The position numbers were made by a program, and so were the translations under genes. From a virus: DNA of 64,000 bases. Below, piece by piece: positions 10,195-46,854 of this stretch. Location of the stretch: positions 694 through 64,693 of the IMG/VR virus record IMGVR_UViG_2878893965_000005; one strand, written 5' to 3'. Every line of letters starts with the position of its first letter. Within the stretch, counting starts at the first letter, position 1. Under the pieces are notes generated by a model, which made no database searches, was not told the origin of the DNA, and was given only the letters and a program-made list of their open reading frames with translations.

Positions 10195-10251
10195 GATGGC
10201 ATCCTCTATGGTCAGTTTTATAAACTCACCACGTGAGGTTCCAAACTCATA

Positions 10252-10331
10252 GGTGGTGAGACGTACAGGGTTGGAACTACCGGCGACCATAGGAACCGGC
10301 CAGCCTTGCGGCTGCCCTGCACGCCCCACCA
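10252..10331 (-). ncRNA. C4/CI-type antisense RNA (Ash-associated) 1
   Basis: Closing stem, GCAA-tetraloop hairpin and second hairpin; its CUAUGGUC and GUUCCAA segments complement sites both upstream (10389-10412) and downstream (10206-10244). Confidence 0.7.
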
Positions 10332-10522
10332 TAATGCGAATGTGGCCGTGCTTAACGCATAAAAAAACCGCAAAGGCGCGGTTATGCGCTATGGTCGTCA
10401 ACGGGGTTCCAATCCCGGCACCCGTTTTATGAGGTGCCTGGGAACTATAACGCCACCCATTTTCTTTCGCAAGCATTGCATCCATCATCTTTCTCACCTT
10501 CGTTAAACCGTCAACGAACTTT

Positions 10523-10653
10523 GTGGTGCGGTGCCTGGTGCCTCCAGGTGACGTTAACCAGTTAACAGTTAGCGCCGACTACAAAACACCCACAACCAAC
10601 ACGAGGTTCTTCTTAACTGAGTCGCGTGCGCATAGCCGCATTCACCGCACTAC
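10523..10653 (-). ncRNA. Multi-stem RNA scaffold, early-operon copy (dicF-dicB intergenic type)
   Basis: GUAGUGCGGUG..CACCGCACCAC closing stem, AAU-GCG/CGC hairpin, CCUGG-AGGCA-CCAGG hairpin; same fold as the four copies at 24.8-26.5 kb. Confidence 0.65.
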
Positions 10654-12570: not shown

Positions 12571-13013
12571 TAATCAGGCACGAAAACATCCGGTGTGCGC
12601 TGCTCGCATGGGCGGCTGAATCCAGCCAGGAGGATGTCGCCAGCACGATCGCAGCGACATACATTCGACAGGGCGGGAAAGAGCTGCCCCTCACACTTAT
12701 TACCGATCCGGTTGAGCAGCGTCATGAAAGCTGGCGTAACCAGCAAAATATATTTCATCGCTGGCTGTCCGGCGAAACACCGGAGCAGCGCCGCAAAATT
12801 CAGCTTTTGCTTCCCGCCATATCTGAAGAGATCCCCCCACTTCTGCGCCTGAGAATGGAGTTTGCAGATTCCATTGAATACCGGGCTGTCATTCGCGCCC
12901 GGGAAGAACTGAACCGTGCATTTGACGATTTGTTGCGTGCCGTTCTGTCCGGGACCGGAGGCAGACAGGCAGATCGCGCTCGCGATGGCCCTGCTACGTT
13001 ACGGCAGGGGTAA
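12567..13013 (+). CDS. YdaT-family CII-like regulator
   Basis: I.HE.IR.AL..WA...., N.Q.IF.RW, LLPAI...P motifs; follows cro. Confidence 0.75.
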   Translation: MIIRHENIRCALLAWAAESSQEDVASTIAATYIRQGGKELPLTLITDPVEQRHESWRNQQNIFHRWLSGETPEQRRKIQLLLPAISEEIPPLLRLRMEFADSIEYRAVIRAREELNRAFDDLLRAVLSGTGGRQADRARDGPATLRQG

Positions 13014-19954: not shown

Positions 19955-20034
19955 GTCGGGAGGGCGACGAATACAACACCCGAAAGGGAAATAAGTCCGC
20001 GGTCTCGTTGAGCCGTTTCGAACCTCCCGGCACC
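19955..20034 (+). ncRNA. IsrK/C4-like antisense RNA 2
   Basis: GUCGGGAGG/CCUCCCGGC closing stem, CCC-GAAA-GGG arm, second arm; complements sites at 19854-19872 and 20051-20068; promoter TTTACA-16-TATTAT at 19812-19839. Confidence 0.7.
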
Positions 20035-20074
20035 ACTCCGATAGTGGTACTTCGAAAAAATCAACGAGGTCATC

Positions 20075-21319: not shown

Positions 21320-21612
21320 AGACGATTTATCGCAGCAAAAATTGGTTGGACGCAGTGGGACAGATAGAACAATACGTCTTGTGTGGCAGGTGGGGGACGC
21401 AGGTCGCCCATCGCAATGAATTAAAGGGCATGGGACTGAAAACCGATGATTGCGCCACCGCTGCGCTTTGCCCGGAATGTCATTACGAAATTGACAACGG
21501 CTGCCACCTGGAAAAAGAAGAACGCAGGCGGCTAATGAATAAAGCGATAGTGCTTACAGTGATTGAGCTTGCCCGCCGTGGGCTGATAATTCCGGCGGTG
21601 ATTAAGGGGTGA
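21316..21612 (+). CDS. DUF968/YbcO-like small Zn-binding protein
   Basis: YRS..WL.AV, AH, A.LC.ECH..ID.G; coupled to neighbours. Confidence 0.65.
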
Positions 21613-22004
21613 TAATGCGCGATATTCAGGAGGTTCTGGAACGATGGGGCGCATGGGCCGCCAATAACCGTGAGGATGTTGTATGGTCATCAATTGCCGC
21701 TGGCTTTAAGGGGCTGATACCAAACAAAGTAAAATCCCGTCCACAATGCAGCGATGATGACGCGATGGTGATTAGCGGATGTATGGCGCGGCTGAAAAAA
21801 AACAGTGAAGACCAGCATGACTTACTGGTTGATTACTACGTATTGGGAAAGACGTTCATAGCACTGGCCAGACAACATTCATGCTCGGATGGCACTATAG
21901 GTAAGCGATTACAGGGGGCCGAGGGTGTTGTCGAGGGTATGTTGATGGCACTGGACGTTAAGCTGGAAATGGACAGGTATGTACAAAGGGAGAACAGTTT
22001 ATGA
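21609..22004 (+). CDS. Q: Late antiterminator Q
   Basis: [14 protein letters not shown]...[17 protein letters not shown]. Confidence 0.85.
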
Positions 22005-24743: not shown

Positions 24744-24781
24744 ACTTGCCATAAATAACCTGGTGATTGTAGGGTTTTGTT

Positions 24782-24879
24782 GTTGCGGTGAATCCCACTA
24801 GGCGTAGGGGTGTAGTTAGGTTTAGCTTCCACTACTGGCTATGCGGAGAAATCCACCGGGAGGCACCCGGCACCGCAAC
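24782..24879 (+). ncRNA. RNA scaffold copy 1
   Basis: GUUGCGGUG/CACCGCAAC stem, CCC/GGG hairpin, CCGGG-AGGCA-CCCGG hairpin; promoter TTGCCA-18-TAGGGT at 24746-24775. Confidence 0.7.
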
Positions 24880-24933
24880 TTTACAATCCAGTCAATCTTG
24901 AAATGTTTGTTTCGACGTCAGTACAGGAAGGCG

Positions 24934-25059
24934 ATGATGTTGAAAAAATGGTGTGTCAGGCTGCTTCTGCTCTCCAGTTTTTTTTGTGGTGTAGTCATAT
25001 ACTGCGTTGTTATCGAGCGTATAGAGCATGAGCTGATTTTTCTGGGGATAGATGATTAA
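24934..25059 (+). CDS. 41-aa single-TM peptide
   Basis: AGGAAGG RBS; MMLKKWCVRLLLLSSFFCGVVIYCVVIERIEHELIFLGIDD. Confidence 0.5.
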   Translation: MMLKKWCVRLLLLSSFFCGVVIYCVVIERIEHELIFLGIDD

Positions 25060-25104
25060 AAAATTTATTGCCAGACTTAATCTGCAAACAGTAGCTTTTC
25101 CGGT

Positions 25105-25223
25105 GTTGTGGTGAATCCAGCTATGCGCATGGGCGTACAGTCAAATTTCTCTGATGAGAAACGTAAACGAGACCGCGGACTTTGTGACTGGTAAGTCCAC
25201 CGGGAGGCACCCGGCACCGCAAC
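25105..25223 (+). ncRNA. RNA scaffold copy 2 (carries anti-IsrK 17-mer)
   Basis: Same stems; promoter TTGCCA-18-TAGCTT at 25068-25097; 25166-25182 is the reverse complement of 19993-20009. Confidence 0.75.
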
Positions 25224-25229
25224 GCTAAT

Positions 25230-25305
25230 CCGCCACTAGCTCAGCAGGATAGAGCAGCAGCCTTCTAAGCTGTTGGTGCGGGTTCGATTCCCGCTGACCG
25301 CTCCA
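25230..25305 (+). pseudogene. Chimeric tRNA-Arg(UCU)/Gly with unpaired acceptor stem
   Basis: D and anticodon arms with UCU are intact; 5' CCGCCAC cannot pair with 3' UGACCGC, which matches the tRNA-Gly 5' end at 25971. Confidence 0.7.
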
Positions 25306-25331
25306 GAACCAGAAATACGGGAATTAAGTAC

Positions 25332-25433
25332 TCAGAAAATAAACAGCCCGTTTATAGCCAGCATCCAGGCGAACCATATACCTCCCAAAACAATAGCCAC
25401 TAACCAGTAGAGTGCTTGTGCCAGTGCGTTCAT
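25332..25433 (-). CDS. 33-aa hydrophobic peptide
   Basis: AGGAGGT RBS; MNALAQALYWLVAIVLGGIWFAWMLAINGLFIF. Confidence 0.6.
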   Translation of the reverse strand: MNALAQALYWLVAIVLGGIWFAWMLAINGLFIF

Positions 25434-25660
25434 CCGGGGACCTCCTGACTGTAAAAAAGTCCCCGGCACCGGGCAGGTGACGGGGAAATGTATTGGAAGC
25501 AACGTTTTGAGTTATGACCCTCACAAGCAATCGCAACTTATGAAGATGTGAAAACGATAATCATTTGCATTAATGAGTGTCAACGGACTAAGAGTAGGGA
25601 TAATTCCACCCTTGCCGGGAGAGGTTGCAAAATACCACCAGCAAACAGTAGTTTTCAGGC

Positions 25661-25783
25661 GTTGCGGTGAATCCAGCTATGCGCATGGGCGGAAGTGGTT
25701 TCAGGATAGTTAATTATCAAGGTAGCGCGAGTCACGGTCGGCAGCCAGCCAACGACTCACCGGGAGGCACCCGGCACCGTAAC
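25661..25783 (+). ncRNA. RNA scaffold copy 3
   Basis: Same stems; promoter TTGCAA-18-TAGTTT at 25625-25654. Confidence 0.7.
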
Positions 25784-25789
25784 ACTATC

Positions 25790-25865
25790 GGCCCTTTAGC
25801 TCAGTGGTCAGAGCAGGCGGCTCATAACCGCTTTGTCGCTGGTTCAAACCCAGCAAGGGCCACCA
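25790..25865 (+). tRNA. tRNA-Ile2/Met (CAU), ileZ-like
   Basis: Complete 76-nt cloverleaf with CCA; resembles Stx-phage ileZ. Confidence 0.85.
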
Positions 25866-25970
25866 GGCAAGTGTAGACTACTGAATAAGTAGCCTACCGA
25901 CGCAATAGTCTTTCCACGCATGACTATAAATATCGTCGCGGTGACGGCAGGGAAAGACCTGCGTTCATAA

Positions 25971-26032
<62 letters not shown>

Positions 26033-26038
26033 AGACAT

Positions 26039-26114
26039 GCTGGTTTAGCTCCAACGGTAGAGCAGTCGCCTTGTAAGCGAATGGGTAGCGGTTCAGATCC
26101 GTTAACCAGCACCA
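26039..26114 (+). tRNA. tRNA-Thr(UGU)
   Basis: 76-nt cloverleaf with CCA; T loop UUCAGAU is non-canonical at position 58. Confidence 0.75.
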
Positions 26115-26372
26115 TATCCCCCTGTGTAGCTCCGCTGGTCACGCGGCGGCGGCCCATCGTTAAAGGGCAAATTTCAGGCAGAAAAAAACCGCCACAGGGA
26201 TGGCGGGCAGTAAATACTGAACTTGAAAAACAAGGGATACGTCAACACTTGGAGGTCTACACACTCAGCAGAACTGTGTAGCCATCAACACCTTGCCTGA
26301 TTTCTGTGTTTAAGTTAAACAGATAAATCCTAAACTAGTAAACCATGTAAATTATAATGTTATTGTAATGAT

Positions 26373-26501
26373 GTTGCGGTGAATCCCGTTAGCGCGGGGC
26401 AAACTGATCATCTGTGTGTATTGACAATAGTTGCAGCAGACATGAACACGGGTCATGGCAGATCAACCAAAGGCTCACCGGGTAGCGACCGGCACCGCGA
26501 C
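26373..26501 (+). ncRNA. RNA scaffold copy 4
   Basis: Same stems with variant CCGG-GUAGCGA-CCGG; extended -10 TGt-TATTGT at 26358-26366; terminator 20 nt downstream. Confidence 0.7.
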
Positions 26502-26521
26502 ACTACAATACCAGGGAAAAC

Positions 26522-26548
26522 AAAGGCTACTTCGGTAGCCTTTTTCTT
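26522..26548 (+). terminator. Intrinsic terminator
   Basis: AAAGGCTAC-TTCG-GTAGCCTTT plus U-tract. Confidence 0.8.
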
Positions 26549-26645
26549 TGGGCAAAAAAATACCCGGTCAGAGAACCGGGCTGGAATGACGAAATAGCGT
26601 CTAAATGAGTATTTACGAGTTTTGCCTCATAGGGTTAAGGCACGT

Positions 26646-27382: not shown

Positions 27383-27721
27383 ATGAATAACGACCCACAT
27401 AGCTGGACGGACTGGTGGGTGATGGTGAAAAGCTGGATTAATGGCGACATTCCCCTGGACAGCCTTTTAATGACGGCGGTTATTGCAACACTGCGTGTTC
27501 TGTATACGGGAAGAAGCTGGCGACGTCTGTTGCTTGAAGTGCCACTGTGCTGTCTGCTGGCCGTTGCCGCGTTCTCCATGATTAAACCTATTCCCGTTTC
27601 CTGGTTATCTGAAGACTGGCGGGTAGGTATTGGCGCAGCCATAGGGCTTATCGGCGTTGAGCATATCCGGGCACTGGGTGTGTTTGTGACGAAGAAAATA
27701 GCAGGAAGGACAGGACAATGA
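27383..27721 (+). CDS. Holin (lambda-type, multi-TM)
   Basis: Hydrophobic helices, basic C-terminus, coupled to endolysin. Confidence 0.8.
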   Translation: MNNDPHSWTDWWVMVKSWINGDIPLDSLLMTAVIATLRVLYTGRSWRRLLLEVPLCCLLAVAAFSMIKPIPVSWLSEDWRVGIGAAIGLIGVEHIRALGVFVTKKIAGRTGQ

Positions 27722-28134
27722 CTAATTCACCTCGCGGCATTCGTAACAACAACCCCGGCAATATCCGCTGGGGCGACGACTGGAAAGGGCTGGTACCGAA
27801 AGAGCAGCGTACCGATAAAGCGTTTTGCCAGTTTGTAACACCGGAATACGGCATCAGGGCGATGATCGTTATTCTGCGCAACTACCAGCGTAAACACGGC
27901 CTGAACACCATCACCGGCATTATTAACCGCTGGGCACCCACAAACGAGAATAACACGCAGGCATATATTGACAGCGTAGCAAAAACGACTGGCACAGCCC
28001 CTGTTCAATTCGTCCACACCGACGACAGCCGTTTCATGATGAAACTGCTACAGGCCATCATCCGGCACGAGAACGGCGAGCAGCCCTACGGGTTTGATGT
28101 GTTCGTCAGAGCGCTGGATCTGGCTGGCGGCTGA
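27718..28134 (+). CDS. Endolysin (lysozyme-like, RGIRNNNPGNI family)
   Basis: RGIRNNNPGNIR, F...EYGIRA, I.RWAP..ENNT motifs; between holin and spanins. Confidence 0.75.
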   Translation: MTNSPRGIRNNNPGNIRWGDDWKGLVPKEQRTDKAFCQFVTPEYGIRAMIVILRNYQRKHGLNTITGIINRWAPTNENNTQAYIDSVAKTTGTAPVQFVHTDDSRFMMKLLQAIIRHENGEQPYGFDVFVRALDLAGG

Positions 28135-28224
28135 TTCACGAAGAATATAAAAGCGAAAACCCCGATTGCCGCAAACAGTCGGGGTTTTCTGTTTCTGCAC
28201 CTTGAATAAGGCAAGGGAGAACCT

Positions 28225-28362
28225 GTGATTGATATTAGCAAACTGATTAGGGAGTTGCGACTAATGATTGAGCAATTACCAAACTGGAAATTTATCCTGA
28301 TCTGGCTGGTACTGTTTGTCGCTGCTATTGGCTATCTGATTGGGCAAATCCGCTGGTGGTGA
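28225..28362 (+). CDS. 45-aa membrane peptide, putative type I toxin
   Basis: GGGAG RBS; one TM helix, WW C-terminus; preceded by a strong bidirectional hairpin at 28155-28189. Confidence 0.6.
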   Translation: MIDISKLIRELRLMIEQLPNWKFILIWLVLFVAAIGYLIGQIRWW

Positions 28363-28363
28363 C

Positions 28364-28852
28364 ATGAACCGCATAACTACTGGCGTAATAGCCTCGTTGC
28401 TGATAGTGGCCGCCGCGCTGGCCTGGACAACGGACCATTACCACAGTAACGCGGTACGATTCCGGCAGCAGCGGGACACCGTTACTCATAAGCTGGCGCT
28501 GGCGAACGCGACAATTATCGACATGACGAAGCGCCAGCGTGACGTTGCTGTCCTTGATGCAAAATACACACAGGAGTTAGCCGATGCGAAAGCTGAGAAT
28601 GATGCTTTGCGCGATGACGTTGCCGCTGGCCGCCGTCGCCTGTACGTCAACGCAACATGCCCCGCAGCCGTGCGTAAAGCCACCACCTCCCCCGGCGTGG
28701 ATAATGCTTCCACCGCCACCCTTACAGCGAATGCTGAGCGGGATTACTGGCGTCTCAGGGACGGAATAGCCACAGTGACAAAGCAGATCGAAGGGGCGCA
28801 GGACTATATCAGAACACAATGTGGTTATGTTTCTTCTGACGGGACGAGATGA
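28364..28852 (+). CDS. Rz: Rz-like i-spanin
   Basis: N-terminal TM, LD.KYT.ELADAK.EN..LR..VAAG.RRL.V.A.C. Confidence 0.85.
   Translation: MNRITTGVIASLLIVAAALAWTTDHYHSNAVRFRQQRDTVTHKLALANATIIDMTKRQRDVAVLDAKYTQELADAKAENDALRDDVAAGRRRLYVNATCPAAVRKATTSPGVDNASTATLTANAERDYWRLRDGIATVTKQIEGAQDYIRTQCGYVSSDGTR
28584..28769 (+). CDS. Rz1: Rz1-like o-spanin lipoprotein (embedded)
   Basis: Lipobox VVAC and Pro-rich body in an alternate frame of Rz. Confidence 0.8.
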   Translation: MRKLRMMLCAMTLPLAAVACTSTQHAPQPCVKPPPPPAWIMLPPPPLQRMLSGITGVSGTE

Positions 28853-46511: not shown

Positions 46512-46590
46512 TTACCCACATCTGAATCAGTAACACTGGCTGCGGGTGCTTTGGGCTGTCTGCCTGAAGCATTAGTGAATGGCAGGCAAG

Positions 46591-46650
46591 AAAAAGCCCC
46601 GAAGGTAATTAATGTTTATTAACCACCTACGAGGCCTATCCTATGCTTGA
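46591..46650 (-). ncRNA. sok: Sok-like antisense RNA
   Basis: Hairpin ending GGGGCUUUUU antisense to the mok/hok leader. Confidence 0.65.
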
Positions 46651-46701
46651 CAACATGAAGATAGCCTCTTACAGGCCGAAAGGTCAAGGAGAAACGAGGC
46701 T

Positions 46702-46854
46702 ATGAAGCCACAAAAACTGGCGCTGATAGCGCTAATCGTTGTCAGTATCACGCTTCTCGGAGTGTTGTTACTGAATAACAAAACCCTCTGCGACGTTAGC
46801 TTCCGAAGCGGCGGAACGGAGGTTGTGGCTCATATGGCTTACGAATCCAGGTAA
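46702..46854 (+). CDS. hok: Hok/Gef type I toxin (50 aa)
   Basis: MKPQKLALIALIVVSITLLGVLLLNNKTLCDVSFRSGGTEVVAHMAYESR; 5' GGGUGCUUUG pairs with 3' CAAAGCACCC. Confidence 0.9.
   Translation: MKPQKLALIALIVVSITLLGVLLLNNKTLCDVSFRSGGTEVVAHMAYESR

Follow-up and report, generated by a model that had tools for sequence, protein, structure and literature searches.

STnc100-type small RNAs with putative promoters of their own and conserved tRNA junctions between the Q and lysis genes of a lambdoid prophage

STnc100, PasD1 and PasD2 are Hfq-associated small RNAs (sRNAs) encoded by lambdoid prophages of Salmonella, enterohemorrhagic Escherichia coli (EHEC) and enteropathogenic E. coli (EPEC) (PMC8550237; bioRxiv 10.64898/2026.05.13.724894). 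PasD is abundant in uninduced EPEC, where its binding to Hfq and its base pairing with targets have both been shown by RIL-seq, and copies of STnc100 are expressed in uninduced EHEC. The 3' tail of PasD carries the seed as well as the usual Hfq-binding module. In Rfam the fold of these RNAs is named STnc100 (RF02076, gathering score 47 bits), a model that covers the STnc100/PasD prophage sRNA family. That the family exists, that it lies between the antiterminator gene Q and the lysis genes, and that lysogens express it is already known. Its members rank with the most abundant sRNAs that prophages encode in pathogenic E. coli and Salmonella, and the making of their ends has not been analysed before; promoters are not analysed in the 2026 survey of Pas sRNAs, which regards tRNAs in the vicinity as sites of integration and not as belonging to one transcript with the sRNAs (Zhu, Shabalina and Storz, bioRxiv 10.64898/2026.05.13.724894). 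Here we describe a lambdoid prophage, contained in a 64,000-nucleotide (nt) stretch of viral DNA (IMG/VR record IMGVR_UViG_2878893965_000005, positions 694 to 64,693; the whole stretch is called the window below), in which four same-strand copies of this fold are interspersed with tRNA genes, and we consider how the ends of the four RNAs may be formed.

The Q antiterminator gene of the prophage lies at 21609-22004 and the genes for holin, endolysin and spanin at 27383-28852, with the four RNA copies and their tRNAs between them, at 24746-26553 (Table 1). The first-pass annotation of this DNA, which was made from the letters without database searches, had described the copies as scaffolds; they are members of the known STnc100/PasD family. 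Copy 2 falls 0.3 bits under the gathering score of RF02076, and still has the three helices of the family in the alignment described below. Like STnc100/PasD, the window copies fold into a closing helix (P1), a 5' hairpin with a bulged A (P2) and a 3' hairpin (P3), lie between Q and the lysis genes, appear to have promoters of their own and would begin at P1. They differ at the 3' side: copy 4 is full length and ends in a terminator, whereas copies 1-3 lack both the 3' tail and the terminator, and copies 2 and 3 are joined to tRNAs by a 6-nt linker. What appears to be new is the fixed geometry between promoter and P1, and the occurrence of terminator-less copies joined to tRNAs, which is common to many related phages. 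No description of the promoter-to-P1 geometry or of the tRNA junction was found in the literature consulted.

Relatives of the four copies were gathered from viral contigs with a 20-nt motif of the 3' hairpin, so that the selection was blind to the sequence upstream and downstream of the RNA. Forty diverse copies (the window's four and 36 relatives) align at both ends around a variable middle. Their consensus consists of P1, of P2 following the sequence GAAU and containing the bulged A, and of P3 beside the 3' strand of P1, with compensatory changes in 11 of the 18 consensus pairs. P1 is 9 base pairs (bp) long: among 131 distinct copies, each of pairs 1-9 forms in 85-100% and each of pairs 10-14 in 24-39%, compared with about 38% for random bases. 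Since pairing beyond the ninth pair is near chance, the conserved structure starts at the first base of the 9-bp P1.

Directly upstream of this base, each of the four copies very probably has a sigma-70 promoter of its own, as judged from sequence. The putative promoters of copies 1-3 combine a TTGCMA -35 hexamer, an 18-nt spacer and a TAGNNT -10 hexamer, and that of copy 4 is of the extended -10 type; the -10 ends 6-7 nt before P1, and every coordinate that the first-pass annotation had assigned to these elements is correct. The TTGCMA-N18-TAGNNT motif has three matches in the window, all of them before copies 1-3 (expected 0.37; three were reached in 0 of 100 shuffles), a count that is weak alone because the motif was defined from those three sites and copies 2 and 3 have paralogous upstream regions. 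The -35 hexamers of copies 1-3 match the consensus at 4-5 of six positions, while the -10 hexamers retain only T1, A2 and T6. An independent prophage of this genome (L002) repeats the geometry of the copy 1 promoter, Fels-1 and the relative L125 both retain the extended -10 of copy 4, and in L085 an identical scaffold, orthologous to copy 3, is preceded by a different promoter of the same geometry (TTGAAT-18-TAGTAT-6). For copy 4, a perfect TATAAT at 26353-26358, eight bases further upstream, was also considered as promoter; Fels-1 and L125 do not share it, and it was judged less likely.

Because the motif was derived from its own sites, the independent test is a family-wide comparison. The 45 nt upstream of all copies were grouped into 69 clusters, with P1 fixed at 9 bp, and the positions of TAnnnT hexamers were counted. 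The hexamer occurs exactly 6 nt before P1 in 23 of the 69 clusters; at control offsets the mean is 1.45 clusters and the highest count 4. Where a hexamer lies 5-8 nt from P1 (30 clusters), TTG is found at an 18-nt spacer in 12, and at any other spacing in 3 or fewer. The 23 clusters contain 15 different hexamers; nine have the TG of an extended -10, usually without a -35, eight have TTG at 18 nt, and in 21 of them P1 starts with G. Two classical sigma-70 designs, a -35 with an 18-nt spacer and an extended -10, thus seem to run across the family, and both are found in the window. A promoter of its own appears to be the main solution for a member of this family, though not the sole one.

The published 5' ends point to the same base. 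The starts of PasD2 and PasD1 have been estimated at positions 741157 and 1060260 of NC_011601, respectively (Pearl Mizrahi et al., Table S6; PMC8550237). In the genome sequence each of these positions is the G that opens P1, located 5-7 nt past an A-rich -10 and downstream of a TTGACT -35. Together with the family-wide positions of the -10 and -35 hexamers, these ends support the earlier suggestion that the copies have promoters of their own, with +1 coinciding with the 5' end of the scaffold. It had further been suggested that expression in the lysogen could be independent of Q. This is plausible by analogy, considering the abundance of PasD and of EHEC STnc100 in uninduced cells and the binding of RpoD (sigma-70) that a chromatin immunoprecipitation-exonuclease (ChIP-exo) study reported at the STnc100 promoters or genes of S. 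Typhimurium LT2. The Rfam model, on the other hand, begins about 25-30 nt upstream of P1 (corresponding to 24758-24781 and 26343-26372 in the window) and draws a short outer helix there. This border disagrees with the estimated PasD starts at the first base of P1, which suggests that RF02076 takes in about 25-30 nt of promoter DNA, including the -10 region, at its 5' end. The outer helix, in which ATTGTA upstream would pair with TACAAT downstream, can form in copies 1 and 4; L125, L096, L002 and Fels-1 lack it, and it was rejected as an RNA structure.

The second conserved feature is the junction with the tRNAs. Copies 2 and 3 end 6 nt before tRNA position 1 (25230 and 25790), exactly as had been noted, and in both cases there is no terminator and no room for a promoter between scaffold and tRNA. 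Viral contigs were scanned for the pattern of a P1 3' strand followed within 4-10 nt by a tRNA 5' end. The junction was found with tRNA-Ile2 in 9 contigs and with tRNA-Arg or Arg-like elements in 16, and the linker, measured from the 9-bp P1, is 5-7 nt long (mode 6) and has at least 13 different sequences. Either tRNA is combined with different variable middles (cargos) and promoters, and one scaffold type is joined to tRNA-Arg in some phages and to tRNA-Ile2 in another. Fels-1 of S. Typhimurium LT2 also has a scaffold-linker-tRNA junction. In NC_010391 its scaffold occupies about 12857-12962 and its linker 12963-12968, and an Arg/Gly chimera of the kind described below begins at 12969. The most compact arrangement is that of L066 (9040-9445), in which a promoter is followed by a scaffold with a cargo resembling that of copy 2, 6 nt, tRNA-Ile2, 2 nt, tRNA-Arg, 1 nt and tRNA-Gly. 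Such tight packing leaves no room for a separate tRNA promoter, and this architecture supports the first-pass proposal that the tRNAs borrow the promoters of the scaffolds. It also shows that spacers between tRNAs can be much shorter than the linker between scaffold and tRNA. Among complete E. coli genomes none covers the scaffold-tRNA-Ile2 junction, and among phage records the Stx phages match only the tRNA part of the junction query. A degenerate form of the junction pattern gave nothing in genome contigs beyond chance hits in unrelated phyla.

RNase P cuts every precursor tRNA at position +1. If copy 3 and its tRNA are transcribed together, as the junction suggests, a cut at 25789/25790 follows from this established knowledge, and cleavage between these two bases is accordingly predicted with good confidence. 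In the folded unit a closed scaffold is followed by six unpaired bases and then by a normal cloverleaf with encoded CCA, scaffold and tRNA folding independently of each other; the unit thus offers the features of an RNase P substrate, namely a tRNA recognized by both ARAGORN and Rfam, a CCA end and a free 6-nt leader. About six free leader bases beside a stable helix would also fit the known contact between the RNase P protein and the leader. For copy 2 the situation differs. The element that follows it is a chimera of tRNA-Arg and tRNA-Gly, which is not called by ARAGORN, matches the Rfam tRNA model only over its positions 8-63 and folds without a cloverleaf. An intact tRNA-Arg follows a similar scaffold in L132, L142 and L085, so that the junction is ancestral and the damage to the tRNA of copy 2 secondary. 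The same chimera is present in Fels-1 (L129, 820-890) and in several viral contigs, which makes it old and widespread rather than a recent accident. The claim that RNase P sets the 3' end of the scaffold is therefore a sound inference for copy 3, with its intact tRNA, free linker and independent folds, and is not supported for copy 2, whose tRNA cannot form an acceptor stem. Other relatives carry Arg-like elements that have lost the D and anticodon arms and retain the acceptor stem, the T arm and CCA, which is how a pure processing signal would be expected to look; these elements are nearly identical to each other, and too alike for a test of selection.

Taken together, these observations can be read as a set of related units that form their ends in different ways, a reading that we hold to be likely as a whole. 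Four sigma-70 promoters would fire in the lysogen, and each transcript would begin at the first G of the 5' strand of P1, which would bury the 5' end in the helix. Copy 4 would end at its own intrinsic terminator, like a canonical STnc100/PasD RNA. Copy 3 would constitute the 5' leader of a transcript that continues into tRNA-Ile2 and then tRNA-Thr, and the RNase P cut at tRNA +1 would free it with a 3' tail of 6 nt, which exonucleases could trim back to P1. Copy 2 would once have been a unit of the same kind with tRNA-Arg; now that this tRNA is without its own 3' half, cleavage by RNase P has probably ceased at this site, and the transcript reads on. The transcript of copy 1 would continue into an open reading frame (ORF) of 42 codons. 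During lytic growth, the whole stretch would also be read from the late promoter; a late promoter and its terminator were searched for after Q and not located.

Table 1. Positions in the window of the scaffolds, their putative promoters and the adjoining tRNA elements and reading frame.
Feature	Position	Strand	Description
Putative copy 1 promoter	24746..24775	+	TTGCCA 24746-24751, 18-nt spacer, TAGGGT 24770-24775, 6-nt gap, P1 from 24782
Scaffold copy 1	24782..24879	+	98 nt; no terminator or tRNA; continues into short ORF; Rfam 50.7 bits
42-codon hydrophobic ORF	24903..25031	+	GGAAGG ribosome-binding site; copy 1 would be its 5' leader
Putative copy 2 promoter	25068..25097	+	TTGCCA 25068-25073, 18-nt spacer, TAGCTT 25092-25097, 7-nt gap, P1 from 25105
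Scaffold copy 2	25105..25223	+	119 nt; no terminator; P1 3' strand ends at 25223; Rfam 46.7 bits
Linker GCTAAT	25224..25229	+	6 nt; first three bases could lengthen P1
Chimeric Arg/Gly pseudo-tRNA	25230..25305	+	5' part, D arm and anticodon arm from tRNA-Arg(UCU); 3' end from tRNA-Gly, with the join in the T arm
Putative copy 3 promoter	25625..25654	+	TTGCAA 25625-25630, 18-nt spacer, TAGTTT 25649-25654, 6-nt gap, P1 from 25661
Scaffold copy 3	25661..25783	+	123 nt; no terminator; closed 9-bp P1 in fold; Rfam 48.4 bits
Linker ACTATC	25784..25789	+	6 nt; single-stranded, from sequence and fold
tRNA-Ile2 (ileX/ileY-like)	25790..25865	+	Intact; anticodon CAU; encoded CCA; ARAGORN; Rfam tRNA 70.4 bits
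tRNA-Gly(UCC) 5' fragment	25972..26032	+	Cut in the T arm, 6 nt before tRNA-Thr; intact tRNA-Gly at this place in L085
tRNA-Thr(UGU)	26039..26114	+	ARAGORN, Rfam
Putative copy 4 extended -10	26358..26366	+	TG, one base, TATTGT; 6-nt gap, P1 from 26373
Scaffold copy 4	26373..26553	+	P1 to P1 26373-26501, 3' tail, intrinsic terminator hairpin 26522-26543 and U run; canonical full-length STnc100; Rfam 89.6 bits (full model)

On the plus strand between 24746 and 26560, the terminator of copy 4 is the only one called. The tRNA at 25790-25865 has homologues annotated as tRNA-Ile in E. coli, and the 42-codon ORF is kept after the homologues of copy 1 in L132 and L103. Part of the variable middle of copy 2 (25166-25182) is the perfect reverse complement, over 17 nt, of positions 19993-20009, which lie within the second C4-like RNA of the prophage (Rfam sRNA-Xcc1 match, 19955-20039); for the other copies no antisense match longer than 11 nt was found within the window. 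Homologues of C4 and IsrK lie within this prophage, by Rfam search. The minus strand carries a fifth copy of the scaffold (about 10525-10651), with the isrK and C4 RNA genes (10249-10437) just downstream of it. This copy directly follows a terminator-like hairpin, has a longer P1 of about 12-15 bp and precedes a ribosome-binding site and an ORF; a promoter at the usual position was not found for it. Two further STnc100-type copies sit in other prophages of the same genome. In three of the viral contigs (L101, L075 and L119) there are tandem arrays of at least three scaffolds of about 100-115 nt, separated by spacers of 30-40 nt that each contain an extended -10-like element.

Two other features of the window lie outside this set of RNAs. 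Between the copy 2 unit and the promoter of copy 3, the minus strand contains a hydrophobic ORF of 33 codons (25332-25433), just upstream of which lie a strong GGAGG site and a hairpin resembling a terminator; it may encode a small membrane peptide or toxin. Neither the small ORFs nor the neighbouring minus-strand genes have a match in Pfam. A full-length sok antitoxin RNA (46544-46704, plus strand; Rfam 91.3 bits) implies a module of the hok/sok type elsewhere in the window.

Other explanations of the arrangement can be weighed against release of the scaffolds as sRNAs. The scaffolds that precede tRNAs might be cis-acting leaders of phage tRNA operons, which stabilise the precursor or tune its processing. 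They do hold the leader position of tRNA transcripts, as in L066, and the tRNA-joined copies lack the terminator and the 3' tail in which PasD bears its seed and Hfq-binding module; in addition, other members of the family occupy the 5' leaders of ORFs, as do copy 1 and the minus-strand copy at 10525-10651. However, copies attached to one and the same tRNA differ in their variable middle, for which a leader of purely structural function would have no need, copy 2 carries a cargo with a perfect 17-nt antisense match in another RNA of the prophage, and the relatives that bear terminators are proven trans-acting, Hfq-associated sRNAs. A role restricted to cis is for these reasons considered improbable. 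The juxtaposition could also be a by-product of recombination in a hot spot for morons; copies 1-3 would then be terminator-less remnants in decay, and the 6-nt spacing would go back to a single ancestral junction. The many broken tRNAs (the Arg/Gly chimera, the truncated tRNA-Gly and the Arg-like elements without D and anticodon arms), the visible shuffling of promoters, scaffolds and tRNAs, and the Rfam scores of copies 1-3, which lie at the threshold, would all be expected from such a history. Yet P1, P2 and P3 are intact and show compensatory changes, promoters that have been swapped still hold the exact geometry, and the linker, although free to vary in sequence, keeps its length of 5-7 nt with two different tRNAs, and the tRNA-tRNA spacers in the operon of L066 measure just 1-2 nt; a by-product is rated as less probable still. 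That the upstream motifs are not promoters at all, and that the region is transcribed only in the Q-dependent late transcript with scaffold ends made by processing, would agree with its place in the path of late transcription, the weak hexamers, the missing terminators between units and the P1-type arrays, where a long hairpin precedes the scaffold and leaves no space for a promoter, but is made highly improbable by the family-wide -10 peak at one exact offset (with its -35 at 18 nt or extended -10), the PasD 5' ends at P1, the abundance of uninduced PasD and the sigma-70 binding at the LT2 STnc100 genes.

Several observations weigh against the preferred reading, in which promoters of their own start the scaffolds and RNase P releases copy 3. 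With regard to the promoters, a consensus promoter scan flags none of the four sites, and in copies 1-3 only 3 of the six -10 positions agree with the consensus. About half of the upstream contexts in the family have no -10 at the expected position, and some copies instead follow long hairpins (phage P1) or a terminator and then lead into an ORF. The PasD starts were estimated from RNA-seq coverage, not by a primary-end method, which makes a processed 5' end possible, and the 5' border of the Rfam seed, if correct, would place the -10 within the RNA. With regard to the junctions, the tRNA after copy 2 forms two of seven acceptor pairs (5' strand CCGCCAC against the 3' strand of tRNA-Gly), and since its Arg/Gly chimera is common among the relatives, many junctions cannot be RNase P sites. 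The conservation of linker length may in part reflect shared descent.

If the tRNA-fused copies are indeed released by RNase P, the family would possess a way of forming 3' ends that is independent of terminators, and the RNAs so freed, provided that they are stable and functional, would lack the usual Hfq-binding tail and may act through other partners. There would then be a reason beyond codon usage why lambdoid phages retain tRNAs, broken ones included, in the interval from Q to the lysis genes, and the reading of these tRNAs as integration scars would have to be corrected. That phage tRNAs are kept for processing is, however, put forward tentatively, as an idea with somewhat less than even chances. 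More speculative, and on balance unlikely, is a general scheme in which temperate phages of enterobacteria run tRNA-punctuated sRNA arrays. Promoter-flush, terminator-less scaffolds of the STnc100 type would there carry swappable antisense cargo, directed for example against C4/IsrK-type immunity RNAs of the same or rival phages, and RNase P would set them free at tRNAs or at pseudo-tRNAs reduced to acceptor stem, T arm and CCA, part of the tRNA cluster being kept as processing signals and not for decoding.

A related arrangement is found in the region of phage P1 between dmt and ban (L127, MH422554). At positions 1300-2630 of L127, between dmt and the gene for an SPFH protein, at least three scaffold-like units alternate with tRNA-Asn, tRNA-Thr and long hairpins. 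The tips of these hairpins resemble a T arm with CCA, and in one case a stem of 11 bp runs right up to the first base of a scaffold P1. This RNA island shares with the window the same scaffold fold, interleaved on one strand with tRNAs and tRNA-like pieces. Unlike the window copies, its scaffold directly follows a long hairpin and lacks a promoter of its own, and the element defining its end lies upstream.

Outside the family, regulatory RNAs whose ends depend on tRNA processing take several forms. The 3' external spacer of the E. coli glyW-cysT-leuZ transcript is reportedly an sRNA cut from a tRNA precursor, and so resembles the proposed window units in being a regulatory RNA within a tRNA primary transcript that is freed by tRNA-processing nucleases. 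It is, by contrast, a short sponge located 3' of the tRNA and is said to be freed by RNase E, whereas copy 3 is a 5' leader with a large closed fold that RNase P would free. The C4 RNA of phages P1 and P7 and the CI RNA of P4 are reportedly matured by RNase P, and are thus, as would be the case in the window, phage regulatory RNAs with an end made by this enzyme. These RNAs are said to mimic the acceptor stem of a tRNA, and RNase P makes their 5' end; in the window a true tRNA lies downstream, and the cut would make the 3' end of the sRNA. In the tRNA-linked small-RNA units of murine gammaherpesvirus 68 and in synthetic polycistronic tRNA-guide RNA arrays, a small RNA is processed by means of the tRNA next to it, which acts as a built-in handle, as proposed here for the window. 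Those systems are eukaryotic or engineered and have no sequence relation to the prophage scaffolds, and their small RNA lies 3' of the tRNA and is freed by RNase Z, whereas copy 3 lies 5' of its tRNA and would be freed by RNase P.

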